Part shown: in pieces, positions 17,155 through 49,348 of the stretch
Layout: every line of letters starts with the position of its first letter
Numbering within the stretch: position 1 is the stretch's first letter
The notes under the pieces: model-generated
What the model was told of the DNA's origin: nothing
Seen by the model: the letters and a program-made list of their open reading frames with translations, nothing else
The model's database searches: none
DNA from: Escherichia coli
GTDB taxonomy: Bacteria > Pseudomonadota > Gammaproteobacteria > Enterobacterales > Enterobacteriaceae
Assembly: GCF_051903065.1 (NCBI RefSeq)
Contig: NZ_CP178438.1
DNA length: 64,000 nt
Direction: 5' to 3' (one strand)
Translations under genes and position numbers: made by a program

Positions 17155-17547
17155 ATGCTGAGCAGAGAGGACTTTTACATGATAAAGCAAATGCGCCAGC
17201 AGGGCGCGTACATTGTCGATATTGCGACTCAGATTGGTTGCTCTGAACGAACGGTCAGGCAATGGGTTATACGGGCGGACGTTCCATGCTGCGTTACTAC
17301 ATCCAGCCCAAACGTAAAATGCGTCCGTCAAAAAGAACAGTTCGCTTCGAAACTCAGCCTGGATACCAGCTCCAGCACGACTAGGGCGAAGTTGAGGTGG
17401 AGGTTGCCGGGCAACGGTGCAAAGTTAACTTTGCGGTTAATACGCTGGGGTTCTCCCGCCGCTTCCATGTCTTCGCCGCACCAAAACAGGATGCTGAGCA
17501 TACACCAGAGCAGGAACATCTGCAGCCGTTACCGAGTTCCGCATTAA
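17155..17547 (+). pseudogene. IS21-family istA fragment
   Basis: N-terminus MLSREDFYMIKQMRQQGAYIVDIATQIGCSERTVRQ matches IS21 IstA, then the frame decays; candidate IS21 left end TGTCAGCGCC at 17057. Confidence 0.6.
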
Positions 17548-17662
17548 GCGCCGTTTCGACAGTTAATTTCGTCAGCATACGGGAAAACTGATTGAGATCG
17601 GCCCCGGTTTTGAGGCCTTTAGCCAGTTCAGCCGCAAGGACTTTAAGCGTCTTTTCGTCCAC
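17534..17662 (-). pseudogene. IS256-family transposase N-terminal fragment
   Basis: MDEKTLKVLAAELAKGLKTGADLNQFSRMLTKLTVETALNAEL is the conserved IS256-family N-terminus; frame lost at the junction with the IS21 fragment. Confidence 0.55.
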
Positions 17663-17930
17663 AATCTACTTGTCTACGTTGTTGGAGTGAACATATCAAA
17701 AAACGGCAATTACACAATTTAAATTACAGTCTCTATGAGAACAGTTCAATTTTTTAACTCTCGTTTTCCTCCCTGGCGTTATATGCATAAGCAACTTGAA
17801 AGACCCGATGATAGTTATAATTTCAGGTTATGTCCATGACGACCAATTTGTAACTAAAACAATAAACGGTAACGCTGCCATATAAGCATCAAAAGCGAGC
17901 ATTACAGCAACATTCAACCGATTAGATGTA

Positions 17931-18371
17931 TCACTCATAATCAGAACAAGATGATGATGTGCCCTGAGATATAAGAAAATCATCAAGAGAACCTCCGGCT
18001 TTTATTGCTTCTGCAATAACAGAAGGCCGACGACCTTGTCCACTCCAGTACATTATTTGACCGTTATACTCATACCTGTACTTATTAGACTCTCCTGAAT
18101 CGTTTTTTCTGCCCGTCTGTAATTTTTTGCCAAATTCACGATACACATCTTCCGCCGTTACACCTGCGTCATCCATGTACTTTTTGATAATTGCCAAAGA
18201 ATCCTTCAACTCATTACGCTGCTCAATGGCCTTTTCAAGGTTATCCTTAACTTGATTGAAGTCTTCATCAGACATTTCCATGATCAACTTCCGGACAAGG
18301 TTGGAATTAAGAAGTGATGTACGAACAGTAGAGAGATCTTCATTCTCAACAGAAAACTTCTTCTTGCTCAT
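17931..18371 (-). CDS. H-NS-family nucleoid-associated protein (horizontally acquired paralog)
   Basis: 146 aa; C-terminal DNA-binding region …KYRYEYNGQIMYWSGQGRRPSVIAEAIKAGGSLDDFLISQ contains the H-NS TWTGQGR-type motif; N-terminal coiled-coil region. Confidence 0.8.
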   Translation of the reverse strand: MSKKKFSVENEDLSTVRTSLLNSNLVRKLIMEMSDEDFNQVKDNLEKAIEQRNELKDSLAIIKKYMDDAGVTAEDVYREFGKKLQTGRKNDSGESNKYRYEYNGQIMYWSGQGRRPSVIAEAIKAGGSLDDFLISQGTSSSCSDYE

Positions 18372-18500
18372 CTATCAATACTCTGCTTATCATTAACTTA
18401 TGATAAATCCTATCAGGTGATTTTTTATAAAAATAATGGCTACATCACAAAATGTGATACTTAATATTTACTTCATTCAAAGTGAGTGAACTTTCCCGGA

Positions 18501-19250
18501 TAGGCTAGCCCCCTGAATCTCCAGTCAACCAATATCACTTAAATAAGTGATAATCTTAATATTAGTTTTTAGACTGGTCATTGGAAAACAGATGATTGAT
18601 GCCTCAGGACCGGAGAAACTCAGACGGCATACTGCACAGGAAAAGATCGCTAATGTTCAGAAGAGCTTTGAACCAGGAATGACGGTCTCCCTCGTTGCCC
18701 GGCAACATGGTGTAGCAGCCAGTTACTTCTCTGGCGCAAGCAATACCAGGAGGGAAGTCTTACTGCGGTGACTGCTGGGGAACAGATCGTTCCTGCCTCT
18801 GAACTTGCTGCTGCCATAAGGCAGATTAAAGAACGCCAGCGCCTGCCCGGAACAAAACGATGGAAAATGAACTCATTAAAGAAGCCGTTGAATATGGACG
18901 TGCAAAAAGTGGATAGCGCACGCTCCCTTATTGCCGGGGTGATGCACTGGGCGGTCACTACCGGCGGCTTCAACAGTGAAACAGTACAGGACGTCATGCC
19001 AGGAGCGGTGGAACGCCGCTTCGGCAACGAGCTTCCGGCGTCTCCAGTGGAGTGGCTGACAGATAATGGTTCATGCTACCGGGCTAATGAAACACGCCAG
19101 TTCGCTCGGATGTTGGGACTTGAATCGAAGAACACGGCGGTGCGGAGTCCGGAGAGTAACAGAATAGCAGAGAGCTTCGTGAAAACGATAAAGCGTGACT
19201 ACATCGTGTTCATGCCCAAGCCAGATGTTAATGACGGCATTGCATAACCA
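18501..19250 (+). mobile_element. IS2 remnant (internally deleted and 3'-truncated)
   Basis: IS2 left end TAGGCTAGCCCCCTGAATCTCCAG; OrfA-like [44 protein letters not shown], frameshift, then OrfB C-terminal segment …[24 protein letters not shown]…KRDYI… with the OrfB N-terminal half missing. Confidence 0.7.
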
Positions 19251-19499
19251 TGCAGTAGCAATCGAACATTACAATGCAGCATAGTTCTAAGTTATCGCTC
19301 GCCGCAGGTATATATGCGGCAGCGGATCAGTAATGGGTTAAATGATAACAGATGTCTGGAAGTATAGGGAGAAATTCCCTGAGGGATTCCCAAAAAATTT
19401 AGTAAACCAATATCATATTGGTATACCGTTGTTGTAAAATGTTCAGCCCTGCGTCAAGTGACAAGGTGTTTAGTATGAGTGGGGAATGTCGGAACCTGT

Positions 19500-20113
19500 T
19501 TAGGATTCTGTGTAAATGCCTTTTTTCAGAAGTGACAGGCAGTCACCGAACTCGATAATAAAGCGGCTCATTGCCATACACCTGTCCTTCAACGACACCG
19601 TCCATTTCTGGGACGCAGACTGGATTGCCAGCCACACCACTTTTTTCACCGAGTCGTCTGTCGGGAACACTTTACGCTTTTTGATCGCATGGCGGATCAC
19701 ACTGTTTAGTGACTCGATGGCATTCGTCGTATAGCGCACTTTGCGAATGTCCGTCAGATAAGCGAAGAACGTGGTAAGATTCGGTCAGTTAGCCTGCCAG
19801 CTCCGACTTATCTAGTGCTTGCTAGCCTGTCTCTTCCGTGGGTGCCTGATTAAATCTCTTTCAGGTCGCGAGTGACGGCTTTGTAGTCCTTCCATGACAC
19901 GAAGCGCAGGCTGTTGCGCACCATATGCACGATGCATAACTGGATGCTGGCCTCCGGATATACTGTGTTGATGGCATCTGGAAAGCCTTTCAGGCTATCT
20001 ACACAGGTGATGAGGATATCGTTCAGACCGCGGTTTTTCAGTTCAGTCAGCACATTGAGCCAGAACTTCGACCCTGTACACGATTCTGTGTGAAACAACG
20101 GGGAGCAGGTCAT
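19500..20113 (-). pseudogene. IS256-family transposase, 5'-truncated and frameshifted
   Basis: Two pieces (…[33 protein letters not shown]…IVHMVRNS… and …RYTTNAIESLNSVIRHAIKKRKVFPTDDSVKK…) in different frames; N-terminal third absent here. Confidence 0.65.
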
Positions 20114-20127
20114 CGCTTCCCAACCCG

Positions 20128-21006
20128 TTATTTCAGCGTGCCGAACTGTTTGTCTTTCAGTGCATATAGTCGGTCGAACTCAGCATAGGGCTCTCCCGTT
20201 TCAGCCGCGTGCCGGGTTTTAGCATCCAGAAGGTCGGGTAAAGGGATCCTATGATTCAGTGAGTGGTAAAGATCATAACCACTGACACAGATAACCCGCT
20301 TCCCTTTACCAAAAGCCGTCAGGCCTTCAGGCGTAAAGCCCATCCAACTGATAAAAACACCGCGTGTCCAGGTTGCCTTGGTACTGAGCTTTCCTTCAAA
20401 TACATGGAGGTCGGCAGCCGACGTTCTTTTCTGATGCCACTTTGCCTCCATCAGGTAAAATTCATCATTCAGTCGGAAACTTCCGTCAATCTGTTCGCCT
20501 GTATTTCGGAAAGACGAACGGGGAGCAAGCTTAAAGATACTGAACAGTTCAGCAAGCCAGGCTTCAAACCGAAAACCACGTGGATGTGGCGGCAGAGATT
20601 TCATCTCGTTCATTTCAGCGATAAGTGAATGCCAGTCAACACCATGCCATGCCTGGACAGGCTTAACGCCTTTGGCTTCATCGGTGTCAGCGTTTTCTAA
20701 GCGGGAAATCAGTGCAAGATAGTCATTACGGCTTTGTTCAGCCTGTTCAGGCATGGATTCCGTTTTATACTGCCAGAGCGCACCAAGAACCCGCAGAGCG
20801 GTCTCACGATCAACCTGTTTCAGCAAGCATCTAACTCGTTTGGCTTTTGACGTCCCCTCTTTCTGATAACGTTCATCATCAATATCAATGTTCAATTCTT
20901 CATCGAAAAAAGCAGACAAGGTGCGGTTAGAGAAATCCAGTATCCAGCCAGGATCGCTCTCGAACACAATATTAAACAGCCTCAAATCCTGCATTTTCAG
21001 TTTCAC
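20128..21006 (-). CDS. Mrr-like restriction endonuclease-fold protein with unknown N-terminal domain
   Basis: 292 aa; C-terminal …[25 protein letters not shown]… is a PD-(D/E)xK (D…E-A-K) core resembling the Mrr catalytic domain; N-terminal 130 aa unassigned. Confidence 0.55.
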
Positions 21007-21333
21007 GCCTACCTCCTTTTTTCACAGTATAACGGGATGAAAGTGGGGGAGGAAATGAGTCAGAACCTGTACACCAGCATTAGGGGATTCCGCGTCTGGT
21101 ACAAAGCAGACTATGAGAAGAGAGACGCTATAACATTTGAGTCCTACCAATCGATCTGTTCATTTCTATGAATGGCAGTAAATGCAAATAACCAGAACAA
21201 CCAAAGGTTTTTCGACTTATGTGTCACGAACGGAAGTAGATGGCAATCCATTGCATTACTTCAGGACGACTTTTCAGAAAGCGAGCTAAGGGCGTTGGCA
21301 TAAACTCAGGCATCGGATGCTGTTTTACAGGGT

Positions 21334-22065
21334 TCACCTGCCATCCAGTAGACGCCCCAGCCCACGACTGCAACCATAATTACGTTGACCAGAACCGTCA
21401 TGCTGCTTCGTCTCATACTTCACGAGATAACGGGCTCTCTCCATGGCTTTCTGCATCGCTTCCACATCACCACGCTTGACCCAGAGAACAGCGGATCCAC
21501 CAGATTTTTTGTCAGAATCCTTCCGGGTATCAGAACATCCACCAGGCACAGGCGTATCATCGGAAGAAGGGCGAGCATCAGATGATGTCGGTTTACGGAA
21601 AGGCGTCCGCCTGGAAAAATGAACCAGTCCATTACCCTGCCAGGGCTCAAGATGCAGAGCACTGCACCATGCCAGCTTGATCAGTGTCGCCAGCGAAGAA
21701 GGAACGGTGAAATCCCCTGGCGAGCACCAGGTATCTTTGTTGAGCAGTAATATCACGTGATAATGTTTCCTGCCTTTTTCCTTGCCAAACTCCCGACACC
21801 AGAAATAACGCAGAGTGGTTGCACGCACACGCTTGTTGGCACGTCGTTTTTTCCGCTGGTAAGCCTGAATTTTTGCTTTCAGGGATGCAAAAAAACGAGA
21901 AATCACCGCTGAATCTAAATCGGTATCCATGATGGTGGCAGGCATATACTCAGGGAAACGTAAATCCACCCGGATTAACGAGACGGCACGGTGTTGCGCC
22001 AGGGCACCGTTGAGAATACTTTCAAAACGGGATAACCAGTAAGCATTGTGTATTGGTTGATTCAT
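21334..22065 (-). CDS. YagK/YfjJ-family (inovirus Gp2-like) protein, paralog 3
   Basis: 243 aa; …KHYHVILLLNKDTW… core; preceded by about 1.5 kb of AT-rich ORF-free DNA. Confidence 0.6.
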   Translation of the reverse strand: MNQPIHNAYWLSRFESILNGALAQHRAVSLIRVDLRFPEYMPATIMDTDLDSAVISRFFASLKAKIQAYQRKKRRANKRVRATTLRYFWCREFGKEKGRKHYHVILLLNKDTWCSPGDFTVPSSLATLIKLAWCSALHLEPWQGNGLVHFSRRTPFRKPTSSDARPSSDDTPVPGGCSDTRKDSDKKSGGSAVLWVKRGDVEAMQKAMERARYLVKYETKQHDGSGQRNYGCSRGLGRLLDGR

Positions 22066-23579
22066 GATGAGAGATCTCCGTTGATTTGGATTGACTTCAC
22101 ATCATTAATCACCGCGGTAAAACTTTACGGCATCCGGCATTGAGCAATGCTACAACTTTCGGATTAAGAGTGATTGAAACGGAACAAACCATCCCGGAAC
22201 AAAAAGATAATTCTACACGCAGGGTAAAAACACTCAAGAACAGCGAATGGATTTAAAAACGACATGGACAACGAGAAAAGTCAGAAGGGAAAAGGATCCA
22301 CAGAACATTCAAACAAAACACCAGAAACGCAACCAGAACGCTTCCTGGTAATGCAAATCAACAACAACCCCAAAACCTACAGCTTAATCACACAACTCAA
22401 TCACGGATGCGAATGACACGTTTAAAACCTGTTTACAGATAACGCCGTTACACGATCATCCCCATCAGAATCGATTTTCCCTTCCTGAAAGCGTTACGTT
22501 TCACTACGCACCATAAAAACGATTAACCATCGATAACGTAAACTTCATCTGAATCAAAACACCAAAACCGTTCATCACACTTTCGCAATGCAAGAAGAGT
22601 CACATCATGACGAAAACAATGACCTTACACGGAAAAGAAAACGTCAGGAATCGTTAATGCCTCAATCTGATTGTTATCAAAACATCCAGAAAGTCGTTTA
22701 ACAGAATCGTCGTAAGCACATCGAAAAGAACGTCAGATTACTTCAGGAAAGTTCGGGTTGATTTAGCGTAAAGATACTTTTCTCATGCTAACGTCGAAAC
22801 TCGAAATATCAGGAAAGGTTAAACGTAACATCAGTAAAATCGAATAGCAGATTGATTGCTGAAGCAGAAAGGTTTTACAGCAGCATTAAACTGATTTTAG
22901 CTAACGTAAAGATTTACTAAACTGGATGTATTTCAGACAAAGCAATGTGTACAGCAATGCTTAACGAAAACACTTGTAGAAGTGTTTATGAAAATACGTG
23001 TATAACACTTACTGAAATGCTTAGTAAAAATACGTGTATATAGTATCATACCGACATTCTCAACTCTTCCAAACATCCATGCAGACTGAATGTTGATTAC
23101 CCGTTTTCACATCAGGCATGGTTCTTTACTGACCAAAAAACAAACTGGTTTACTCTTGAATTATTTTCTCTACCTCAGAAAACATGGTCTCAGGAATCTG
23201 TTATGGCTTCGTAGTTTCTGTTGTTCTTTTCATAAAAGTTATAAGTTATTGTCATAATCATACGATAATCACTTTATGTTAGTTTTTACTGTTACACGCT
23301 ACTGACTTTTTCAGTCATTGCCAGAAAGGGGCTCTTTTTACTTCCATTTCACCACTCAACAAATGCAAAACTCGTCCAGTAAAGCGGACCACCACTTGCT
23401 CACAAGCAACGAATCGTCTCCAGGAACAGCCCTCAAACATTGCAGAAACAAAAACAACAAAACCCTCATTATCACTGATGTTCGGAAAATTTCCATGACC
23501 CAAAAAACGAAATTTAAATGAGACGCATTATCATGCGTGTGATCAAAAAGACGTTATGGTAGCTTTCAGTTAAATGGTG

Positions 23580-32346: not shown

Positions 32347-35300
32347 TTATATCTGCCCGCCTACACCTTTAAACTTCTCAATAAACGCGACGATCTTCTG
32401 GAAAACCGTCTGTTTTTTCGTCTTATATTGCGGATTTAACGGACTGAGTTTTGGCAATGTCTCGTTTAATTCCGTGCCATTTTCGGTTGCGTATTCGCGT
32501 TTTAAAGACGTGCGAATATAGCGTTTCGCCGCCTCTTCATTGAGATTTTCTTCTTTGATCAATGCTGCTGCTTCACGTTGCTGTTCGCGTTGAGCAAAGG
32601 TAAAAAACGCGTCAATGATGCTGGCTTTATCCGGCAAATCATCCAGGTTCGTTTGCTGAATAAAATCGACCACCAATCCTTCTTTGGCACGGTTCCCAAG
32701 GCTTGAACGAATTAAGCGTTTGACCTCTTCGGTCATTTCGCCCTTACCTTTGTTTTGTCTGTTGTGTTCGAAAATCAGTCCAAGGATATAATCCAGGTTT
32801 ATTTCCTGAGACTTCAGCAAATCGACCTCAAAAACCACGTCATCCCAGTCGGTGGTTGATTTTTCTTTTTTGTCAGCTTCTTTCTCACGGCGCTGCCAGT
32901 CACGAATATCGTTATAGGCTGAACGGTAATCCTGAATCTTGCGATCAGCAGGGAGACGAATCGTTTGTAATTCAGCGAACTTTTCATCATCCACATAATG
33001 TTCTGCTTTGAATTTTTCTACCGCAACAGGATCGCTAAGATCGATTTGTTGCAGGGCTTTCAGCATGGCAAATTCATCATAGTTTTGCAGGATGTTCTCG
33101 GCACGCAGGTATTCACCAAACAGTTTTACGAAGTCTTTCTTCTCTTTTTCACTTTCAATATTGGCAGGGTCAGGGAACCGTTGTTCCAGTTCTGAAACTA
33201 CTGCCATAAAGCCGCGTTTAGCTTCACCAGTGGCAGCATCAGTAAAGCCTTCCATATACTCTGCATAACTCTTTTCTAACACCACATTTTTGGTATTTTT
33301 ATCACCAAACAGCGTTATGGCATCAATGGTTGAGCGTTCCAGATCCCGGAAAGTGACGATGTTACCGAAGGTTTTAGTGGCGTTATAAATGCGGTTGGTG
33401 CGGGAAAATGCCTGCATCAGGCCGTGAAAACGCAAGTTTTTATCGACGAATAGCGTGTTCAATGTTGGAGCATCGAAGCCGGTTAAAAACATCCCCACGA
33501 CAATTAACAGATCGATATCTTGATTTTTAACCCGTTGGGCTAAATCACGATAGTAGTTCTGAAAACCGTTACTGTCGGTGCTGAAGTTAGTTTTAAAATA
33601 GCTGTTATACTCACGAATTGCAGCGTCAAGAAACTCTTTAGCACTGCTGTCCATTGCGCTGGTATCAAAAGTTTCATCGGAAATTTCACCAATGGCATTT
33701 TGCTCTTCATTGGCGGCAAAGGAGAAGATTGTCGCAACACGCAGCGGTTTATAAGTAGCCGATTTATTAGCTGCTTCCTCTTGTAACCGTTTAAACGTAG
33801 CGTAATAGGCTTTCGCGGCATCCACGCTACTCACTGCCAGCATGGCATTAAAGCCTTTGGAACTTGGGAAAGTACGGTGGGTCTTCTGGCGGAAGTTATT
33901 CAGAATATATTGCGTAATTTCCTGTATACGCATGGGATGAAGAAACGCCTGCTGATTTTCAGCCGCACTCAGTTTTTTCTCGTCGGTTTCTGTCTCTAAA
34001 GACTTAAACTGTGGCCGCACATCGTTGTAGTCCACCTTGAATTTGAGCACTTTTTCATCACGAATCGCATCGGTAATCACATATGAATGCAATTCACGAC
34101 CAAATACGCTGGCGGTCGTTTCTGAGCCTAAAGCGTTTTCCGGGAAAATAGGGGTACCGGTAAAACCAAACTGATAATAGCGTTTGAATTTCTTCTTCAG
34201 ATTTTTCTGCGCTTCTCCAAACTGGCTGCGGTGACATTCATCAAATATAAACACCACTTGCTGATTGTATACAGGCAGGTCGCTTTCTGCTTTCATCAGG
34301 TTATTAAGTTTCTGAATAGTGGTGACGATAATTTTGTTATCGTCCTTATCCAGATTTCGTTTAAGACCTGCTGTATTTTCCGAGCCGTTAACACTATCTG
34401 GCGAAAAACGCTGATATTCCTTCATGGTCTGGTAATCGAGGTCTTTCCTGTCGACCACAAAGAAGACTTTATCAATAAAGTCCAGTTCTGTTGCCAGACG
34501 TGCGGCTTTAAAGCTGGTCAGGGTTTTACCAGAACCGGTTGTGTGCCAGATAAAGCCACCGCTTTCGGGGGTAGACCAGTTTTTCGCTTTATAGGAGCTG
34601 TTGATTTTCCATAAGATACGCTCAGTGGCGGCAATCTGGTACGGTCGCATCACTAGTAGCGTTTGGCTAATATCGAACACGCTGTAGTTCACTAAGACAT
34701 TAAGCAGAGTATGTTTCTGGAAAAAGGTAGCGGTAAAGTCTTTGAGGTCTTTAATCAGCGTGTTGTCTGATTTCGCCCAATTCATGGTGAAATCAAAACT
34801 GTTTTTATCGCGCTTTGTGGTGTTGGCAAAATAACGGGTATCGGTGCCGTTAGAAATGACAAACAGTTGCAGATACTTAAACAGGGAATTTTCGCTGTTA
34901 AAACTCTCTTTACTGTAACGATGTATTTGGTTGAAAGCCTCACGAATCGCCACGCCGCGCTTTTTCAGTTCGATTTGTACCAGTGGTAAGCCATTAACCA
35001 GGATCGTGACGTCATAACGGTTAGCATGAGAACCCGCCTGTTCAAACTGCTGGATAATCTGCACCTTATTGCGCATGAGATTCTTTTTATCTATCAGATA
35101 GATATTTTCAAGACGCCCGTCATCAAAAATAAAGTCGCAGATATAGTCGATATGAATTTTACGGGTTTTATCCAGGATGCCATCGCTGGGGTTGTCCAGA
35201 TACTGCTCCGTGAAACGCCGCCACTCGCTGTCATTAAACACCACACCATTGAGGTTCTGAAGCTGTTCCCGAACATTGGACAGCATCGCCGACTGTGATT

Positions 35301-35463
35301 TTACCGAAATAAATTCATAGCCCTGATTCCGCAGGTCCTGAATCAGTTCCCGTTCCAGGTCCGATTCGCTCTGGTAGCTGTCGCCTGTTTGCTCAGCTTT
35401 GATGTACTTATCAAGGACGATAAAGTTATTGGATTCAGCAATGGTGTGTGTTTGATGAGTCAT
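32347..35463 (-). CDS. hsdR: Type I restriction enzyme R subunit (Type IC, EcoR124-like HsdR)
   Basis: 1038 aa (same length as EcoR124I HsdR as recalled); helicase motifs TGSGKT and DECHRSQ. Confidence 0.95.
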
Positions 35464-35584
35464 AGCGCATCCTTTGTGCCGCCTGGCAAGGGCCGGAAGG
35501 GCGTTAAGAGTGACTTCCGGCGCGTAAAAAATAGTCTATATACAGACCGGGTGTTAAGGTGGCCCGGTCGGTAGCAATGGTCAA

Positions 35585-36865
35585 TTAGTTACTGATAGTT
35601 TCAGGTTTGGGAAAACTGAACAGTAAATCACGATAGTACTCGTATTGTTTCTGGCGCAACTCGATTTCACGCGGGAGGCCTTCGGTGATGGAGTTTGTCA
35701 GAGTGTCGAATTTATCGAGTATTGCGACGATACGAGCTTGTTCCTTAAGTGATTTTTCGTGATCTTTAGGATATGGAACCGGAATCATAATTTTTGAAAA
35801 ACCATTAATGAGTAGTGTATTAACTTTTGTTCTGGCTACATACTTTGCTTTTTCAGAAATAAACGAATCGGTTTGCATGTAATAGGAAATAAATTTTGGA
35901 TTCAAAGAATGTCGAAAAGCATAACAGTGATCATGAATAGCGATATCGTCATCCCCAAGCCATGCCACTGCTTTACCAACGTCTTCTACAGTCTCCCCCA
36001 CGTCAGTTATCACGACATCTCCATGTTTGGCATAGCGTAATGACGCTGCCATATCAGCTCTAACCTGTGATAACGAATGAGTTGTGTAAACACCATATCG
36101 TGTATATATCTCACCATAATGGATTACACTGATACCACCATCTTCTACATAATCTGCTTTAGTAAAACGTTTTCCACGAATAAACTCACCAATTTCCCCC
36201 AAAGTCTTCCACTCAACCTCACCCTCTTTAAAACTCAACAACTGGTCGCGATAGTAGTTGTACTGTTTTTTACGCATGGTAAGCTCTGCTGTAAGCTCTG
36301 CTGTAAGCTCAGTAAATTTATCCAGAATCCGAACGATTTCAGACTGGATGGCAAGGGATTTTTCCGGATTGCCCGGGCAGGGGATGGGGATGAGTAGTTT
36401 TGACATCAATGCATTTGAGCTTAGATTCGGCTGTGCTCCGCCCCCTGCAAGGATATAAATAGTCTCTGTATTTAACAATAAAAAATGGTATAAATAATTA
36501 TTGTTTAGAATATTTTCTTTGGGTATAAATTTCCCAACACGTTGGTTAAGATAACATTTTATTCCTTTTTTATAAATTCCCACTTTTCCTGTAGTGGCAC
36601 CTGACATTGCAATCAATATATTTCCCATAGATACCTCAAAGGAGGATAAATCTTCCTTGTAATCATTTAGTGAAAAGTATTTCACCTCATCTAAGTCAAC
36701 ATTAAACCCATCTATATTTGTGATTCTAACTATCGGTAACCCAGTTTCTTTAAATAAGCTGCTTTTAAATGCAAATCCATTTTTAAAATCACAAACATCC
36801 TTCAGGGTTTTCCACTCAACCTCAACCCCATCCAGCAATTTTTCCAGATAACTCAACTCGCTCAT
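35585..36865 (-). CDS. hsdS: Type I specificity subunit HsdS (Type IC)
   Basis: Two target-recognition domains separated by the conserved …[23 protein letters not shown]… region with the TAEL repeat; ATG overlaps the hsdM stop. Confidence 0.9.
36279..36310. repeat. 12-bp tandem repeat in hsdS (TAEL repeat, 2 copies plus a partial)
   Basis: GTAAGCTCTGCT x2 then GTAAGCTC on the plus strand, encoding TAEL-TAEL in the HsdS central region. Confidence 0.7.
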
Positions 36866-38416
36866 TTCTGCACCCCGCAGCCTTCAATTTCAGCCACAAT
36901 CGCATCAATATCTTTGCGCAACTGGTCGATTTTGCTGACCGTGGTTTTCAGCTCAGCATTCAGCTCACCGATATCGATAATTTCGCGAGTATCTTTCGCT
37001 TCAACATAGCTGCTCACCGACAGGTTATAGTCATTCGCTACAACGGCTTCAAACGCGACAGATTTCGCCAGATGAGCAACATCTTCCTTGCTGGCAAATA
37101 CCTGCATAATCTGTTCGATATGGGCATCGGTCAGGATATTGTTGTTGGTCTCTTTTTTGAACAGTTCGCTGGCGTCAATAAACTGAACTTTGGTATCGGT
37201 TTTATGTTTAGACAGCACCAGAATATTGACGGCAATAGTGGTGCCAAAGAACAGGTTCGGTGCCAGTGAAATCACGGTTTCGACATAGTTATTATCGACC
37301 AGATACTGACGGATTTTCTGCTCCGCGCCGCCACGGTAAAAAATACCCGGGAAGCAAACAATCGCAGCGCGACCTTTGGCCGAAAGATAGTTCAGCGCAT
37401 GTAGTACAAAGGCGAAGTCAGCTTTGGATTTGGGGGCCAGGACGCCAGCCGGGGCAAAACGTTCATCGTTAATCAGCGTCGGGTCATCGCTGCCAATCCA
37501 TTTCACCGAATACGGCGGGTTAGAAACGATGGCATCAAACGGTTTTTCATCTCTGAAGTGCGGCTCAGTCAGTGTATTGCCCAACTTGATATCAAACTTG
37601 TCGTAGTTGATGTTGTGCAAAAACATGTTCATACGCGCCAGGTTATAGGTCGTATGGTTGATCTCCTGACCAAAAAAGCCTTCTTCGATGATATGGTCAT
37701 CAAACTGCTTTTTCGCCTGCAACAACAGCGAACCGGAACCTGCGGCCGGGTCGTAGATTTTGTTAACGTGGGTCTGCCCGTGCATAGCCAGTTGTGCAAT
37801 CAGCTTAGAGACGTGCTGCGGTGTAAAGAACTCGCCGCCTGACTTACCAGCATTCGCGGCATAGTTAGAAATCAGGAACTCATAGGCATCGCCGAACAGG
37901 TCAATCTGATGTTCGTTAAAGTCGCCAAGCTTTAACCCTTCAACCCCTTTCAGAACCGCAGCCAGGCGGGCATTTTTATCCTTAACGGTGTTACCCAGGC
38001 GGTTACTGGTGGTATCGAAATCAGCAAACAAACCTTTGATGTCAGCTTCTGAAGGGTAACCGTAAGCAGAACTTTCGATAGCAACGAAGATGCTGTTTAA
38101 ATCTGCATTCAGTCTGTCATTGGTATTTGCTTTCGCAGCTACGTTGCAGAAAAGCTGACTTGGGTAGATGAAGTAGCCTTTGGTTTTGATGGCATCGTCT
38201 TTAATGTCATCAGTTATTACGCTGTCATCCAGTTTCGCATAACAGATACTGTCATCACCGGCTTCAATATAGCTGGAAAAATTTTCGCTGATAAAACGGT
38301 AGAAAAGCGCGCCCAGAACGTATTGCTTAAAGTCCCATCCATCGACCGAACCTCTGACATCGTTAGCAATTTGCCAGATCTGGCGATGAAGCTCCGCGCT
38401 GCTGAAGACTGGTCAT
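36862..38416 (-). CDS. hsdM: Type I methyltransferase HsdM (Type IC), apparent frameshift near codon 8
   Basis: C-terminal 389 aa intact (NPPY motif, …[11 protein letters not shown]…). ATG 38416-38414 with AAGGA RBS reads MTSLQQR, but the conserved …[23 protein letters not shown]… continues in another frame. Confidence 0.8.
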
Positions 38417-39914: not shown

Positions 39915-41969
39915 ATGGTTCAGGATTCATCAGCATTAGCCCCCTTCTTTCGTGCTCAAATTGAAAAAAATAATCAATACAATTCAGTTTGGGGCAAACA
40001 CTACCGCCAGCTTGTAGAACAGATTCAGGCCGAAAAACCAAACTTTTCTGAAGCCACGATTCGGCAGGTATGGTATGAACGTGACAATGGTGTCTCCAGC
40101 CTGATGCAAGGAGGGATGTCATTGGTTGAATTTGAAAATGCACAAAAAGACCTTCTAACGCTCACCCGTCAGATAGCAGAAGAGTGTACACAAGAAAATT
40201 ATAATCGGGTCATTGAACGCCTTATCAAACTTAAAGCGGACGGAGTATTAAATAAGGTATATAGGGCTCTTTGTAATCGTGCTTTTGCAGCAATATACCC
40301 ATCAAAAATTAGCAGTGTCGTGAATGTTAATAATTTTTTTAGTTGCTACAATTATTGCAACAACCATTTCCAGCTAGGTCTTTCCGGAGAACGGGAGTGG
40401 CTGGCTCGCAATGTTGATCTTAAAGAAACGCTAAATCGTGCGCTGGGTGATGATATCGACCCTATTGAGCTGAATATGTCACTTTGGCATCTCTATGCGT
40501 ATGAAATTCAGGATAAAAATGCTATCGGTTTAGTTGGAAGCGAAAGTGCTTTACAAGAAAATGAGCAAGAAGATGATGTTATAAGTTCGCCATTGCCTAA
40601 AAACACAATTCTCTATGGCCCGCCAGGTACAGGTAAAACATATCGTACTATTGAGCTTGCTGTACAAATTTGTGATCCGATCGCTTACTCCCTGCAGGAG
40701 GGTAAGGATGAGAGTGAAAAACGTCGCGAGTTGAAAAAGATTTATGATCAGCTTATCAAAGAAAATCGAGTGCGTTTTATCACCTTTCATCAGAGCTTTG
40801 GTTATGAAGAGTTTATTGAAGGTTTAAGAGCTGAGACTACTGATGACGGTAATGTAAAATACGAAATAAAGGCAGGTATTTTTAAGCAGATATGCGAGGA
40901 TGCCGCCTTTGGTCATGCTGGTGCGCAGGAAATGTTAGATAGCGCACTTACTCGCCTACAAGAACGTTTATCTGAAGGTGAAAATATCACGCTGGAAACA
41001 CAACAGGGTAAGGCCTTCCAGCTGACGTATAAAAGTCAAACCAACTTTGGAATTTTCCCGTCACAATCGAAAAAAGAGGATTTAGGACAGGGTTACAATG
41101 CCTATTTGAAGGATATTCGGCAAGTTTATCAGGATCCACGAGCAAAAGTACATAATCCATCTTATGTACGCAGTATCCTTAACTATTTAATTAATCAACG
41201 TTATCTGCCTCTGAATACTCAGAGCGTAGCTTCAGAAAAAAAGGAAAACTATGTTCTCATTATTGATGAAATAAATCGGGGTAATATTTCAAAAATTTTC
41301 GGTGAACTAATTACCCTTATTGAGCCATCTAAACGGGCTGGTGAGCCAGAATCGCTTAGCGTATTGCTGCCATACTCTTCCACTCCATTTAGTGTGCCGA
41401 ATAACCTTTATTTAATTGGTACCATGAACACTGCTGATCATTCGCTTACTGCACTTGATACTGCACTACGTCGCAGATTTGATTTTGAAGCGATGCTGCC
41501 AGATATTACTGTTCTGAAAGATACTGTCATTAAAGGTATTGATCTGCCTCGTCTATTGCAGACGCTTAACGATCGCATCCAGGTTTTATACGATAGAGAA
41601 CATATGCTGGGGCATGCTTTTTTTATCCCTGTTGTGCAGGCAAAAGAAGACGAAGCTCTGGCATTTGAAAGATTCAAACGGATTATGCGAAATAAGATAC
41701 TACCATTGCTGGAAGAATATTTTTACAATGACTGGCAAAAAATTCGCATGGTACTGGCTGATAACCAAAAAGAGGAAGCACCAGATCTTCAATTTGTACG
41801 TGAGGTGAAATACCAGAAAAAGTATGCCGATCTCTTTGGTGATAACGGAACAGATGACTTGGGAACCAGTTTTCACCTGGCAGCAGAGGATGACAACGTT
41901 TGGGACAATCCAATCGCCTGGCAGCAAATTTATGCACCTCAAAAAGAAAAACGCAGGAGTGCGGAATGA
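39915..41969 (+). CDS. McrB-family AAA+ GTPase with non-canonical N-terminal domain
   Basis: 684 aa; Walker A LYGPPGTGKT, Walker B LIIDEINRGN, McrB-type GTMNTAD motif; the first ~230 aa is a helical region of unknown type. Confidence 0.85.
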   Translation: MVQDSSALAPFFRAQIEKNNQYNSVWGKHYRQLVEQIQAEKPNFSEATIRQVWYERDNGVSSLMQGGMSLVEFENAQKDLLTLTRQIAEECTQENYNRVIERLIKLKADGVLNKVYRALCNRAFAAIYPSKISSVVNVNNFFSCYNYCNNHFQLGLSGEREWLARNVDLKETLNRALGDDIDPIELNMSLWHLYAYEIQDKNAIGLVGSESALQENEQEDDVISSPLPKNTILYGPPGTGKTYRTIELAVQICDPIAYSLQEGKDESEKRRELKKIYDQLIKENRVRFITFHQSFGYEEFIEGLRAETTDDGNVKYEIKAGIFKQICEDAAFGHAGAQEMLDSALTRLQERLSEGENITLETQQGKAFQLTYKSQTNFGIFPSQSKKEDLGQGYNAYLKDIRQVYQDPRAKVHNPSYVRSILNYLINQRYLPLNTQSVASEKKENYVLIIDEINRGNISKIFGELITLIEPSKRAGEPESLSVLLPYSSTPFSVPNNLYLIGTMNTADHSLTALDTALRRRFDFEAMLPDITVLKDTVIKGIDLPRLLQTLNDRIQVLYDREHMLGHAFFIPVVQAKEDEALAFERFKRIMRNKILPLLEEYFYNDWQKIRMVLADNQKEEAPDLQFVREVKYQKKYADLFGDNGTDDLGTSFHLAAEDDNVWDNPIAWQQIYAPQKEKRRSAE

Positions 41970-43276
41970 AATCTTCCAGTCATTTCACTGTGTTCGAATA
42001 CGGGCATTTAGTGAGTGAGGAAGGTGATGCCCGTATAAATAATGCGGTAGTGCTACCTGCAGACCTATTTAAATGGCTTGAGCTGCGCTGTCTGAAAGAC
42101 GATGCTGATAATACTCATCGTTTGCTCACCCTTAGCAGCCGGAATGGAGTAAAAACGCTGCAGGTAAAAAACTATGCAGGAGTAATCTCACTGCCAGGGG
42201 GGCGATTTCTCGAAATCCTGCCTAAAACAGGTCAGGATAATGAGGATACTGTTCGTCAACAAATACTGATGATGTTACGTACGTTAAAATCATTTCGTCA
42301 TATTGCCTCCTCTGAATCTGGCGTCAAAATATCTAAAATGCCTCTGATGGACATCTTTATTCAACAATTTATAGAGAGCGTGCGTAAGATTGTGCAGAGA
42401 GGGTTAAAACGTGACTATTTACGTCAGGAAGATAATCTTCCATGGATAAAAGGAAGATTACGGATCTCTGCACAATTAAGCAAAAACTGTATTAGGCGGG
42501 ATCTTTTTCAGGTGGAGTATGACGAGTACAGCGTCAATCGTCTGGAAAACCGGATACTCAAAACTGCAATCAATAAGATTAGTCGCCAGACCAGTAATCC
42601 ACAATTATTACAGCAGATAACACAGCTGCAGTTTCACTTTGAAAATATCACGTCAGTTCATGATGCTTATATAGCTTTCGAGCAGTTACACTTTGATAGA
42701 CACATGCATCACTATGAGCAAGCATTAGCGTGGGCGAAGATGATTTTATTGGGCGATTCTCCACACTGTATGTATGGGGATGTTAATGCTTTTTCACTGC
42801 TTTTCCCGATGGAGGCTGTTTTTGAATCTTTTGTGACGACATGGATGCGTTATCGTTATTATGATAAATGGCGAGTGGACGCACAGGTAAGTTCAAAAAA
42901 TCTGATTAGTTATAACGGTAAAGCTTTATTTAAGCTGCGGCCTGATATTTGTTTACGGCCTCGTAAAAGTACTACTGGTTCAGTTATTACCTGTGATATT
43001 AAATGGAAGATAGTAAATGGCAGAAAGGACAGTCTTGAACAATCTCAAGCCGATCTCTACCAAATGCTTGCCTATGGATTGAATTACCAGGAGGGGGAAG
43101 GTGATATGATTTTGATATACCCCTATCATAACGGATTTAATCAGCCATCTCCTCATCCTTATGAATTTAGCCATCAGAAGGAAAATAGGTTACGTTTATG
43201 GGTTGTACCTTTCTTTATTGGCGAGAGTTTACAGACATCAGAGTTGCATTTTCCTAGTGGGGCTGAATTTATTTAG
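41966..43276 (+). CDS. McrC-family nuclease partner
   Basis: ATG overlaps the mcrB-like stop (ATGA); C-terminal PD-(D/E)xK-like …RPDICL…CDIKWK…; size and linkage typical of McrC. Confidence 0.75.
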   Translation: MKSSSHFTVFEYGHLVSEEGDARINNAVVLPADLFKWLELRCLKDDADNTHRLLTLSSRNGVKTLQVKNYAGVISLPGGRFLEILPKTGQDNEDTVRQQILMMLRTLKSFRHIASSESGVKISKMPLMDIFIQQFIESVRKIVQRGLKRDYLRQEDNLPWIKGRLRISAQLSKNCIRRDLFQVEYDEYSVNRLENRILKTAINKISRQTSNPQLLQQITQLQFHFENITSVHDAYIAFEQLHFDRHMHHYEQALAWAKMILLGDSPHCMYGDVNAFSLLFPMEAVFESFVTTWMRYRYYDKWRVDAQVSSKNLISYNGKALFKLRPDICLRPRKSTTGSVITCDIKWKIVNGRKDSLEQSQADLYQMLAYGLNYQEGEGDMILIYPYHNGFNQPSPHPYEFSHQKENRLRLWVVPFFIGESLQTSELHFPSGAEFI

Positions 43277-43338: not shown

Positions 43339-44268
43339 TCACCCCCTAAAAACCTCTTTCCGATGCCACTCCACAAACCCCTCAAAAGGGTAATTTTTAC
43401 GCACCTGTGGCAACGCAATAGTTTTCCCGTCAAAATCCCAGAATAATCTCTCAACGATCCCTCCGCCGTTTACCGCATCCGAGACCAGTATCCGCATATT
43501 TTCATCCAGGCCAATCGATCCTTTATCAAAGGCTTTATGGTGTATTGCGCAAAGTGCCAGACCATTGGGGATTTCACAAGGGCCGCCGTGCTGTTTCCAT
43601 TTTATATGCGCCGCTTCCAGCGCGACGGTGGTGTCGTCGTGGCGCATATTAAAGCCACATATCGCGCACTGGTATTTATAAGCGCGTAATACATTTTTGC
43701 GAAATAACGGGTCGCGCTGTTTACGGATTTGCTGGAGATCAAAACCCAGCTCGTCAGCAATTTCTTCCTGAATACTCTCGGTGAAGTGCGCTTCGAGTAT
43801 CTGTTGCGCCAGAGTATTGATGAGTTTTTTATTGCCGGTTACCAGGGCGTAGTGCTGTTCATCGAAACCGCCTGCAACGTGGTATTCGTTCAGTTCCTTC
43901 ACTGGCGGTTGTCGGCTGCTCCCTGCTGTTGAGCAACGCTCGGCATTGTGTAATTGCCAGAATCCGTCGCCTTGTAATCGCCAGAACGGCATATCAGGTC
44001 GGTACTGTGAACGCTGTGGCCCAAAACGTTCCAGTAAACTGTGCAGAGGTTCGTAGATTTCCGAGCCATAATCGAAAAGGCGCGGATGTCCATGCAGGTA
44101 TCCCGCTAATACGTATAGCAATAACAATGGCTTATGCGGCGCGCGCTGTTCACCCTTATGCCAGATTTTTATATTGGCAATTGCCTGCTGTAGCGATTTA
44201 CTGGAAGCCATTGATATCCCTGGCAGTGAAATAATTGCGATCATGCTCGCAAATTTTCTGCTGTTCAA
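43339..44268 (-). CDS. HNH endonuclease (HNH_2-type, putative restriction enzyme)
   Basis: C-terminal …YKYQCAICGF…AAHIKWKQHGGP…NGLALCAIHHKAFDKG…; about 190-aa N-terminal domain of unknown function; start may be an internal Met. Confidence 0.65.
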   Translation of the reverse strand: MNSRKFASMIAIISLPGISMASSKSLQQAIANIKIWHKGEQRAPHKPLLLLYVLAGYLHGHPRLFDYGSEIYEPLHSLLERFGPQRSQYRPDMPFWRLQGDGFWQLHNAERCSTAGSSRQPPVKELNEYHVAGGFDEQHYALVTGNKKLINTLAQQILEAHFTESIQEEIADELGFDLQQIRKQRDPLFRKNVLRAYKYQCAICGFNMRHDDTTVALEAAHIKWKQHGGPCEIPNGLALCAIHHKAFDKGSIGLDENMRILVSDAVNGGGIVERLFWDFDGKTIALPQVRKNYPFEGFVEWHRKEVFRG

Positions 44269-44347
44269 GCCTGCAAGTGAAGATATATTACTTTGATCTC
44301 ATTTGTTTTTTTGCTGCTTGTTCTGAGAACGTATAAGGACATTCTCT

Positions 44348-44998
44348 ATGAATAAACTCCCCGATCATCTTCCGCGGCGGTATATTATCGAAGCTATTCA
44401 TTTATGGGATGCGGGAGAAACTCATCAGTTCCAGCCTGCACGGTTGTATGAGATTGAATATCATGGCCGACGTTACCCCTCGAAGGCGATTGCTGGCATC
44501 GCAGCGACATTGATGACGGGGACGCAATTTACCCCTGCGGATTTCACCGGCGGAATAAAATCTAAATGCGTCAAGCTACTTATAGATCAGGGATTTCATA
44601 TTCATCAGGATAAAGCCGCTGCGGCTCCCATAGCCGATGTTCTGTTCCCGGATGAGTTGCCGTCGCAGGGGACCTACGTTGAAGGTGCGGCGATAAAGGT
44701 GACGGTAAACAGCTATGAACGCGATAAAAACGCTCGCGAGAAAGCAGTCGAATATCACGGATGCCAGTGCAACGTATGCGGCGTTGATCTGGTGAAGATC
44801 TATGGCGATATCGCTGAGGGCTTTATCCATATGCATCACCTGGTGCCGCTTTCAGCCATTAAAGAGGATTACCTGCTGGATCCAGTTAATGATTTACTTC
44901 CTGTGTGCCCTAATTGCCATGCGATGTTGCACCGACGCAAACCACCGTTTACGCCGGAGGAGTTAAAAGCGTTGATGGATGCGAATAAATCAAATTAA
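44348..44998 (+). CDS. HNH endonuclease with N-terminal putative DNA-recognition domain
   Basis: …CQCNVCGVDL…HMHHLVPLS…PVCPNCHAMLHR… is a classic HNH; about 110-aa N-terminal domain unassigned. Confidence 0.7.
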   Translation: MNKLPDHLPRRYIIEAIHLWDAGETHQFQPARLYEIEYHGRRYPSKAIAGIAATLMTGTQFTPADFTGGIKSKCVKLLIDQGFHIHQDKAAAAPIADVLFPDELPSQGTYVEGAAIKVTVNSYERDKNAREKAVEYHGCQCNVCGVDLVKIYGDIAEGFIHMHHLVPLSAIKEDYLLDPVNDLLPVCPNCHAMLHRRKPPFTPEELKALMDANKSN

Positions 44999-45005
44999 TG
45001 AACGC

Positions 45006-45986
45006 TCACCTTTCGCGCCAAAACTGCAAAATTGCTTCTACAAACTTGTCAGAAATAATCCCCCGACGGGCTGCCGCGCTGAAATGACTGCTTCGCAGTG
45101 CCGTCGTCCAGTTCTCCGGTGACCGGTACGCTGAACCGTAATATCCCGTGCTTAAATCGTCCGGATCTTCATCAGGCGCGTTCGTCAGTCCTCTTTCACC
45201 TTGTTGCTGGAAGTCGACGAAAATAATATTGGCTAAAACATTATTTTGATAATTGCCATAAATAGCTTCATACGCATGAGGGAAATTTTCTTTCCAGTAC
45301 CAGGTGGTATCGCCGCAAAACCAGGGCGCATCAGTAATATTATTAAGCTGAGAATGGTATTGTTTTAGATCCCTACGAAAGGCTTCAACCATATGATTAA
45401 AGTGTTGAGGGTGTGACGCGTAGTCACTGGTCATTAAGTCAAATTCGCCTTGCATCCAGCATACGCCGAGGAATTTGTTCTGCGGATTTTTTGCCAATGC
45501 GGCTCGCGTTCTGCTGACTAAATCCTGGTATAGCGGAGTATCCGTTCCCCAACGACAAGCATCATGGCTGGCTCCGTGCCGTTCTGAATATGTCCCCTCG
45601 CTGCCCGCGGTAAAAGCCGATCCGCCACGGCAACATGGAACGATGAGAACCCCTGCGTTATCAGGAATAAAGGGCAGTAATTTCCGTGCAATATGCAGTG
45701 CCTGGCCAATGGTGCCGTACTGTGTTTGATGATTCGTTGCCAGAGGATGGTGATAACCCTGCATATCCTGAACATCGTGTGGGCAGTGAGTCAGTGGAAT
45801 AATGTCGTTAAAGTGACATGACGGGCCTCCGGGATGCGTATGCGCAAATCTCGCTAATTGTTTAATTCTGGGATGAGGCGCATCTTCCCTGTCCGGTAAT
45901 GGCAGTCCTTCGCCATACGCCATGGCATTAGACTGACCAGCAACGGTAAGAACATAGTAATAATCGGGCGATATTATTGCGTCCAT
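45006..45986 (-). CDS. nanS: 9-O-acetyl-N-acetylneuraminate esterase
   Basis: 326 aa; sequence and synteny with nanM-nanC as in E. coli K-12. Confidence 0.9.
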   Translation of the reverse strand: MDAIISPDYYYVLTVAGQSNAMAYGEGLPLPDREDAPHPRIKQLARFAHTHPGGPSCHFNDIIPLTHCPHDVQDMQGYHHPLATNHQTQYGTIGQALHIARKLLPFIPDNAGVLIVPCCRGGSAFTAGSEGTYSERHGASHDACRWGTDTPLYQDLVSRTRAALAKNPQNKFLGVCWMQGEFDLMTSDYASHPQHFNHMVEAFRRDLKQYHSQLNNITDAPWFCGDTTWYWKENFPHAYEAIYGNYQNNVLANIIFVDFQQQGERGLTNAPDEDPDDLSTGYYGSAYRSPENWTTALRSSHFSAAARRGIISDKFVEAILQFWRER

Positions 45987-47892: not shown

Positions 47893-49348
47893 AAATTTCA
47901 CTCATTTGTAGGATACAGAAAGCAATACAAAGCCCGCATAAACAATTAGCATTTATGTTGTGTAATATTTTTTTGCCAGGCTTATAGTGTCTTTGGCAAC
48001 CGGTAGCTGTATTTTATATTTTTTTGTATAAGGTCTCCTGTGAAAAATCTCTTTTCACATTATTTAAATAAACAGAGATCCAGATTAAATACCTGAGTAT
48101 AAAATCTCTTCTGATGTTTAATTGATTTGAATGTTCGTAAGCTATATCACTTACTCAATCCATTTTACCCAGAGTCATAAAATAGAGTGTCTGTTGATCT
48201 CATTTTCATATTCCTTTCAGACTGAAGTGCGTTTTCATCACCCGATGAGAAAGAACTGAAGCGATGTTTGCCATAGATTGCAAGATGCCCTGTCTCATTG
48301 TCTATCGTGGTGCACCTTTATACCTGTTATACCAGATCAAAAATCACGCAATCCATACAACAAAACCAGATTTGCAATTCGTGTCACAAAATATGTCGAT
48401 CTTTTTCTAAGAAGAAGATGCCATGTGAAGCCAGACGAACACTTGCGGTGGTCTTCAAAAACTAAAGATCTTCTTTTAACTATATGTTTTATAAATAATT
48501 TATTTAGAGTCTAAACAAGGGAAGCTTTGCAAGCTAACTCAGTGAGCTTGGTGAAAATAAGTGTTTACCCGCCATCAGGCTGAGCATAATTCTCATCATG
48601 AAATATGTTTCCTGGTTTGTGGCTTGTAACTGGTCACTTCTGAAGTCGATCTGGAGAGGCTTGTTGATGTTGGTGTTTTCAGGATGATGTTTCACTTAGT
48701 TTGTTTGCCGTATCGCCCGGCGAATGGCTGTGATTGAGGAAGGTTTAAGTCGCAGTGACCAAAGCCATATTTACCAGCGAATGTAGATGAAAAAATCGTC
48801 TCCTGCGTTCCCCCATATCTCCAGGATAAAAAGGAATGTAACAATCTCATGGCTTAAACTGACGAACCAGCCAGGAATAATCGCTAGGGACCTAAGAATT
48901 AGCTTGATAATAGCCACTAAGAAATTACTGTGTTCCATGAAATAGCCATTTTGTGGCAAATGGAGTTGACTAATAATGTCATATGTGAGACGGCTAGTTG
49001 AACGAATATTAAATTTTGCTGAATTTTTTATGTTGATTTTACTTGTTACAGAACATATCACATGATATATAGATAAGATTAGTTGCATTAATGATGAGGG
49101 TTATTATTAGATTCGTATCAGATTGATAAATATATAAAAGTATATAGCATGCAAGAGCATAGCGTTTGTATGGCAACGTTATTATAATTAACTGTTGCTA
49201 CCCCATTTAAGTTCACTCAGAAGAACTGGTCCACTTACGTTAGTTATTAAGCAAACGTTCGCTTTTATAAACATAATCAGGATAAAAATGTTGGATTATT
49301 GCTAACCCAGCACAGCTAGTGCGCGTCTGTAATTATAAGGGAAAAACG
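47893..49348. promoter_or_regulatory. nanC-fimB divergent intergenic regulatory region
   Basis: About 1.45 kb AT-rich non-coding region between divergent nanC and fimB; in K-12 it carries the nanC and fimB promoters and distal NanR/NagC/IHF sites (established knowledge, sites not mapped here). Confidence 0.45.

Follow-up and report, generated by a model that had tools for sequence, protein, structure and literature searches.

Two divergent genes at positions 43339-44998 of a 64-kb Escherichia coli chromosome segment (the whole analysed stretch, hereafter the window) probably encode two independent, single-chain, stand-alone restriction nucleases that lie side by side in a defence island. The first, called A here, is assigned on its sequence to the characterised EcoWI family of phosphorothioate (PT)-dependent enzymes, which join a sulfur-binding domain (SBD) to an HNH nuclease domain, and is already known as a type. 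The second, B, is an uncharacterised member of a catalogued family (PF26345 plus HNH), in which the N-terminal "head" of ScoMcrA is joined to an HNH nuclease domain; on architectural grounds alone, a modification-dependent, Type IV-like enzyme is the most plausible reading of B. Gene A lies on the minus strand and B on the plus strand, with the start ends of their open reading frames (ORFs) facing each other across 136 bp, counting A from the ATG at 44211. An earlier note on this DNA, made from the letters alone, had described a back-to-back pair of HNH nucleases with different N-terminal domains. The pair is real: the coordinates agree, the HNH motifs are complete, both proteins match their families strongly, and the two N-terminal domains do differ, being an SBD in A and a head in B. 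The features of the two genes are as follows.

43339-44211, minus strand: gene A, SBD-HNH phosphorothioate-dependent restriction endonuclease of the EcoWI family, 290 amino acids (aa) (NCBIfam NF045808, RefSeq name)
43504-43668, minus strand: HNH_2 catalytic core of A, residues 182-236 (Pfam PF13391)
43786-44202, minus strand: SBD of A, residues 4-142 of the 290-aa form (aligned to the ScoMcrA SBD)
44212-44268, minus strand: 19-codon in-frame extension of the 309-aa ORF, probably untranslated leader (not conserved in homologues)
44229-44253, no strand assigned: 25-bp block with the inverted repeat TTGCGA-N6-TCGCAA (44235-44252), candidate operator (conservation)
44348-44998, plus strand: gene B, ScoMcrA_N(head)-HNH nuclease, 216 aa (homologues with PF26345 and PF01844)
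44348-44617, plus strand: head domain of B, residues 1-90 (ScoMcrA head homology)
44618-44716, plus strand: linker of B, residues 91-123, low confidence (predicted local distance difference test score, pLDDT, below 50 over residues 92-123)
44717-44995, plus strand: McrA-like zinc-finger HNH domain of B, residues 124-216 (EcoKMcrA HNH alignment, PADLOC PDLC03656)

Gene A belongs to the EcoWI family

The longest ORF at the position of A spans 43339-44268 and encodes 309 aa from a TTG codon. The true start is almost certainly the ATG at 44211, giving a 290-aa protein of 33.3 kDa, since RefSeq annotates 290 aa in related genomes (starting at M20 of the 309-aa ORF), protein-level conservation in the Klebsiella, Citrobacter and Enterobacter homologues begins at M[A/T/P]SSK, and a Shine-Dalgarno-like AGGGA stands ahead of this codon. 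Of the two sizes reported previously, 216 aa for B was confirmed, and 309 aa for A is the length of the longest ORF. The 309-aa ORF scored 438.9 bits against NF045808 (cutoff 180), with profile positions 2-284 of 284 matched by residues 25-308, and the RefSeq name for the protein is "phosphorothioated DNA-binding restriction endonuclease". The SBD was aligned to residues 95-233 of the ScoMcrA SBD (PDB 5zmm/5zmo) with an E value of 1.9e-8, and homologues of A carry Pfam PF26340 (DNA-SBD_ScoMcrA). At the sulfur-contact positions, the H-K of PHKPLLLL is found opposite ScoMcrA H116-R117, and the Y-P position reads M-P (MPFW in A opposite YPFW in ScoMcrA). Both copies of the gene in E. coli W share this M-P, and it is therefore probably normal for the enterobacterial clade. 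The HNH_2 domain (E value of 1.3e-9) covers the whole 66-position Pfam model, with the residues CAICG...EAAHI...NGLALCAIHH.

EcoWI is a dimer that depends on Mg; its recognition sequence is GpsAAC/GpsTTC, and it cleaves at N7/N6 (Lutz et al. 2020, PMC7461809). It is active alone, both in vitro, where PT-DNA is cleaved, and in E. coli, where dnd+ plasmids are restricted, and four more SBD-HNH enzymes, each approximately 28% identical to EcoWI, have the same recognition sequence (PMC7461809). The leuX island of E. coli W, presumably the namesake of EcoWI, contains two genes of the SBD-HNH type (NC_017635.1; positions 6158-7033 and 47973-49049 of the locus). Gene A is 97% identical to the copy at the same chromosomal position, beside McrBC-like genes and nanS, and 76% identical to the second copy, beside an integrase. 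EcoWI is presumably one of these two copies (WP_000168572, 97% identical to A, or WP_000199891, 76%), and A is assigned to the EcoWI family in either case. No structural difference from EcoWI was seen in the two-domain architecture, the length, the KPLLLL...PFW motifs of the SBD or the HNH_2 core. By homology, the SBD of A would dock on Rp-phosphorothioate DNA, and the HNH domains of an A dimer would cleave both strands at a distance of a few bases; the most probable contexts are GAAC/GTTC, on the analogy of the GpsAAC/GpsTTC specificity of EcoWI. DNA from dnd+ donors would thereby be destroyed and a PT-free host genome spared. Neither of two RefSeq records overlapping parts of the window, which were compared with it directly over the A/B region and the first 25 kb, has an annotated dnd or ssp gene. 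Gene A in itself adds nothing new, being a natural allele of a family already used as a PT-site mapping reagent (EcoWI-seq).

Gene B combines the ScoMcrA head with an McrA-like HNH domain

RefSeq names B "HNH endonuclease", NCBIfam has no family for it, and a local Pfam scan returned a weak HNH match and nothing more. The head was recognised through the PDB sequence search, PADLOC and the precomputed PF26345 (ScoMcrA_N, a recent Pfam family) labels carried by homologues of B. Residues 24-87 of B were aligned to the N-terminal head of ScoMcrA with an E value of 1e-4, and a profile built from 33 head domains matched ScoMcrA residues 4-93 (E value of 4.9e-10) and no other entry in the PDB. The earlier note had taken both N-terminal domains to be of unknown function; this description suits the head of B, and that of A is the SBD described above. 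The SRA, YTH, EVE and winged-helix families that it had proposed as candidates do not fit B: no SRA, EVE or YTH match and no convincing winged-helix match was found in the N-terminal domain. The AlphaFold2 model of B consists of two folded domains with a disordered linker between them. The head is basic (isoelectric point, pI, 8.8), with conserved RRYPxK and GGxKSKC patches and a mean column identity of 54%. The HNH domain was aligned to that of EcoKMcrA (PDB 6ghc, residues 201-269; E value of 0.0023) and has the motif CxxC...HH...CPNCH...H, comprising the catalytic His-Asn-His and two cysteine pairs. Residues C141, C144, H163, H164, N189, C190, H191 and H195 are invariant in 43 homologues with identities down to 38%, and C187 is nearly so; all of them are kept in B, a predicted nuclease.

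The linker and HNH domain of B are 53-55% identical to those of Mrr_N(winged helix)-HNH proteins from K. aerogenes, Enterobacter MGH24 and C. portucalensis, which indicates that the head fills the slot of a known DNA reader. Genes for such Mrr_N-HNH proteins, of approximately 219 aa, stand in tandem on the other flank of SBD-HNH (L006 4260-4919, L028 3159-3905 and L050 9536-10375 in our set of loci). This tandem placement and the linker and HNH module shared with B suggest arrays of HNH nucleases with exchanged sensor domains. An ordinary phage homing-endonuclease architecture, which the earlier note had named as a finding that would overturn its proposal, was ruled out, as none of 50,697 phage records contained a relative covering at least 80% of B; eight records matched at up to 64% coverage and never included the first 74 residues. 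Neither gene is an inactive fragment of a longer one, A and B both being full length relative to their families.

Several known enzymes share parts of this design. The SBD of A and the head of B are both homologous to domains of ScoMcrA (PDB 5zmm), a single 561-aa chain with the order head-SBD-SRA-HNH, whereas A and B split head and SBD between them, each with an HNH domain of a different subfamily, and neither matches SRA. EcoKMcrA (McrA of the E. coli K-12 e14 element, PDB 6ghc) resembles B in joining a small N-terminal domain to a C-terminal HNH domain; however, no similarity was detected between the B head and the N-terminal reader of 5-methylcytosine and 5-hydroxymethylcytosine in McrA, the alignment being confined to the HNH residues given above. 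The winged-helix-HNH (Mrr_N-HNH) Type IV enzymes (PMC11037411) have the length of approximately 220 aa and the linker and HNH module in common with B, and their genes share its gene clusters, flanking SBD-HNH on the opposite side, but B has the head instead of the Mrr_N winged helix. The SRA-HNH and EVE-HNH endonucleases (TagI, VcaM4I) follow the same reader-plus-HNH logic, and in relatives the head shares a polypeptide with EVE or SRA. Unlike these enzymes, B has no PUA-like beta-barrel reader, and its small alpha/beta head is the sole non-catalytic domain.

The head is a module of Type IV-style restriction proteins

The head profile was searched against 1.84 billion representative proteins and retrieved 4,245 clusters (at 50% identity), 1,619 of them with E values of 1e-10 or lower. 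This search and the Pfam scan below replaced one against a 90%-clustered protein collection, which had returned mostly contig-end fragments and told little about architectures. Head-containing proteins range from approximately 100 to 1,567 aa, and the head is N-terminal in approximately 60%. From the proteins of at least 200 aa that contain a head, 107 were sampled for a batch Pfam scan, which gave the following partner domains: HNH (PF01844) in 36 of the 107, HNH_2 in 22, EVE in 12, NOV_C in seven, McrB-type AAA_5 in six, DUF3427 in three, SAD/SRA and MrcB_N in two each, and AspBHI_N in one. The architectures spelled out included head-EVE-McrB GTPase and X-head-EVE-HNH_2. An enterobacterial SBD profile matched none of the 107. 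As these partners make up the Type IV toolkit, the head is, on domain composition, a module of Type IV-style restriction proteins and occurs almost only in such architectures. Apparent fusions of the head to nSTAND3 are probably not real STAND fusions, and the nSTAND3 count was discounted; in the one examined protein, of the head-EVE-McrB GTPase architecture, the nSTAND3 match overlaps the P-loop region of AAA_5. An effector-associated adaptor role for the head was considered and rejected on the strength of that overlap and of the lack of a second head gene in the window.

Genes A and B occur together and apart

The distribution of the two genes was determined in 5,426 complete E. coli genomes, to which all genome counts refer. 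The entire A/B pair is present in 325, full-length A in approximately 1,706 and B in 1,237 (approximately 23%). Approximately 1,400 genomes have A without B, and approximately 900 apparently have B beside a truncated A; the one genome of the latter kind that was inspected combines a 50-codon stump of A with an adjacent, intact B of 216 aa. Remnants of this locus were found in approximately 4,860 genomes. In E. coli W, a deletion of approximately 580 bp, beginning within the shared intergenic region, removes the start and the first approximately 180 codons of B, leaving A in place and 35 3' codons of the head-HNH gene. K-12 MG1655 retains a frameshifted SBD-HNH pseudogene remnant of approximately 70 codons between yjhR and nanS (L102 4025-4230) and has no head-HNH gene.

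The divergent cassette is also found in K. aerogenes, Citrobacter sp. Cu233 and FP75, Enterobacter JUb54 and C. amalonaticus. The C. amalonaticus cassette is a bare two-gene insert beside prpR, with no further defence gene called nearby. Solitary copies of A occur in Salmonella and E. hormaechei, and solitary B-type genes in Pantoea, Sulfurovum, Raoultella, Pseudescherichia and others. One E. coli conjugative element carries a 57%-identical head-HNH gene and an SBD-HNH gene 4 kb apart. Overall, an SBD lies within 10 kb of a head-HNH gene in three of 13 species-level loci, all three from Enterobacteriaceae. In four of six contexts, a 55%-identical head-HNH gene of C. freundii lies 0.5-3 kb from a PT-modification-like cluster (L111-L114, 10001-20651), which comprises a cysteine desulfurase, DNA_S_mod_dnd_assoc_4, an SMC-like ATPase, Sp-CxC, a helicase and a GmrSD_N protein. 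Evidently, this head-HNH protein tolerates the sulfur modification of its host, and the hint cuts both ways. An unannotated 675-aa protein is encoded between the C. freundii head-HNH gene and the cluster. On metagenomic contigs, a 47%-identical head-HNH gene lies two genes from a C5 DNA methyltransferase.

Two independent enzymes or a joint system

The activity of EcoWI alone, the loss of B from E. coli W, the intact B beside a stump of A and the solitary occurrence of either gene elsewhere indicate that A and B are independent enzymes that travelled together and not an obligate pair. For B, the head would serve as a DNA-targeting module that tethers the protein to a DNA feature absent from E. 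coli DNA, and the McrA-like HNH domain would nick or cut near the site held by the head. A target feature missing from the host would allow the nuclease to be kept without a methyltransferase or an immunity gene. The modification-dependent action put forward in the earlier note for both proteins thus agrees with the family of A and, for B, is the most plausible option that the architecture offers. That the two genes are parts of one system against PT DNA, acting as a hetero-complex or with complementary specificities in the manner of a split ScoMcrA, appears quite unlikely to us. The conservation of the cassette in Escherichia, K. aerogenes, three Citrobacter lineages and Enterobacter, in differing chromosomal settings, would suit such a system, as would the bare insert of C. 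amalonaticus, the joint occurrence on the conjugative element, the fusion of head and SBD in ScoMcrA and the C. freundii neighbourhood. However, EcoWI needs no partner in vitro or in vivo, the E. coli genomes with one intact gene and the solitary A genes of Salmonella and E. hormaechei speak against mutual dependence, head and SBD are seldom neighbours and were never fused in the sampled head proteins, and the HNH domains of A and B come from different subfamilies. Arguments from neighbourhood are, moreover, confounded by the clustering of genes in defence islands. The evidence for independence is the stronger, and we favour it over linkage.

Several points weigh against the reading of A and B as two stand-alone restriction enzymes of the kinds proposed. 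No accession or sequence was found for EcoWI, and the E. coli W genome was used in its place; the published mass of 33.4 kDa is slightly nearer to the 76%-identical copy (33.41 kDa) than to the other (33.31 kDa). Loss or truncation of B is frequent: it was seen in E. coli W and K-12, in the nearest complete genomes (through insertion of IS903B) and in C. amalonaticus (173-aa forms). Literature searches found no experiment on B or on any head-HNH protein. The authors of the 2018 ScoMcrA structure described the head as small, flexibly attached and of unknown function, and PT binding by ScoMcrA was explained without it (PMC6224610), so that the head is possibly an accessory domain; its place beside an established reader in multi-domain relatives also makes an accessory role possible.

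In a different reading, B is not modification-dependent, the head is a protein-interaction or regulatory adaptor, and the nuclease is of low activity, conditional or drifting towards loss. We regard this as unlikely. The unassigned function and flexible attachment of the head in ScoMcrA, its position beside reader domains in larger proteins instead of in their place, and the frequent loss or truncation of B fit an adaptor, but the catalytic residues and zinc ligands of B are invariant in distant homologues, the head is itself conserved and basic with its RRYPxK and GGxKSKC patches, and B is intact in almost a quarter of the E. coli genomes. No second head-containing gene is present in the 64-kb window as a partner, and the nSTAND3 fusions that would link the head to effectors are probably spurious. 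It is very unlikely that B is a sequence- or structure-specific nuclease and that the host owes its protection to a methyltransferase gene located elsewhere (Type II-like) or to very low expression. The C5 methyltransferase on the metagenomic contigs and the lack of a detected promoter-like site for B could be taken in its favour; against it, no methyltransferase is a conserved neighbour in the enterobacterial, Pantoea, Sulfurovum or conjugative-element contexts, and the sole methyltransferase gene seen near the pair in the window is a frameshifted hsdM. The toxin/immunity or addiction module that the earlier note had offered as its other option is scarcely conceivable: it draws on the tight divergent arrangement and nothing else, whereas both proteins are full-length nucleases with intact active-site residues, each is found alone in many genomes, EcoWI is tolerated and active alone, and the cassette has no conserved small ORF of an immunity-like kind.

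A more far-reaching version of the favoured reading would make B the founding example of a new Type IV class, its head a compact reader of DNA modification, perhaps PT-linked, and A/B a two-enzyme module that would broaden the spectrum of modified DNA rejected by an enterobacterium. Four separate associations suggest the link to PT: ScoMcrA fuses the head to an SBD, A and B form a cassette, a conjugative element carries both kinds of gene, and the C. freundii head-HNH gene neighbours a PT-modification-like cluster; we hold this proposal tentatively, as a possibility that is rather doubtful. As a member of the large head family, B is intact, small and easy to clone. If its substrate were found, the ScoMcrA head would gain a function, a new modification-specific reagent could follow, and a gap in the restriction inventory of E. 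coli would be closed.

A conserved inverted repeat precedes gene A

The inverted repeat TTGCGA-N6-TCGCAA is located 24-41 nt upstream of the A start codon. Six taxa, with an average identity of 66% over the intergenic regions, agree at 24 of the 25 positions in the 25-bp block that contains it. The block was found in Escherichia, Klebsiella, Citrobacter, Enterobacter and Salmonella, and the repeat precedes nearly every fetched SBD-HNH copy, whether or not B adjoins it, including those of the E. coli conjugative element, Salmonella, both E. coli W copies and the tandem Mrr_N-HNH loci. An exact copy is absent from the E. hormaechei loci (L097-L099). By chance, no occurrence would be expected in the window. 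The likeliest reading, given conservation irrespective of B and a leader RNA that folds no better than shuffled sequence, is that of a putative operator overlapping a weak candidate promoter, TTGAAC-17-CATGAT, on the minus strand. An RNA hairpin or terminator was rejected on the same folding result (z score of -0.46). A sigma-70 promoter scan of the A/B locus returned zero sites. The palindrome offers a handle on the control of potentially self-damaging nucleases.

Neighbouring genes and other features of the window

The island has the gene order hsdRSM, DUF4942, McrB/McrC-like genes, A, B and nanS, and past B follow nanS, nanM, nanC and fimB. The placement of the pair in a restriction island next to McrBC-like genes, as described earlier, was borne out by the McrB- and McrC-family genes, hsdRSM and DUF4942. 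It was likewise correct that no methyltransferase adjoins A/B, the nearest being hsdM, approximately 5 kb away and frameshifted near codon 8. The neighbouring restriction genes are:

32347-38416, minus strand: type I restriction-modification genes hsdR, hsdS and hsdM (hsdM frameshifted)
39915-41969, plus strand: McrB-family gene, 684 aa (NCBIfam partial match; RefSeq name)
41966-43276, plus strand: McrC-family gene, 436 aa (NCBIfam partial match; RefSeq name)

The GTPase match of the McrB-family protein begins at approximately residue 220 or later; the long N-terminal region has no family match, and neither a head nor an SBD was found in the protein. In hsdM (36862-38416, minus strand), MTSLQQR lies in one frame and the remaining protein in another, and the type I system beside A/B may therefore be inactive. 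A frameshift in hsdM is also flagged by RefSeq in strain 23CRST027, which has the same A/B sequence as the window. In the two complete genomes with A/B sequence 100% identical (23CRST027, locus positions 15651-22763), copies of IS903B break the McrB-family gene and, at its 3' end, the head-HNH gene, whereas both genes are intact in the window. In related strains, the leuX tRNA-Leu gene is the starting point of the island; there is no tRNA gene inside the window.

Downstream of B, a 29-aa ORF (44998-45087, plus strand) is annotated by RefSeq in related genomes, and its K-12 equivalent is named YthB. It begins on the B stop codon (TAATG) and is antisense to the 3' end of nanS (45006-45986, minus strand). 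The stop codons of B and nanS are 8 nt apart, leaving no space for a terminator. Positions 1-32000 of the window form a mosaic mobile island that holds a PDDEXK-like protein, several insertion sequence remnants and an H-NS paralogue. The same left half encodes a YadA-like trimeric autotransporter (6258-7580), a group II intron reverse transcriptase (10691-12214), a 292-aa "restriction endonuclease" (20128-21006), a GTPase, DUF932, an antirestriction protein and a YeeU/CbtA toxin-antitoxin pair. The complete genome nearest to this left part is GDSC2BY4G, which is without the A/B region.

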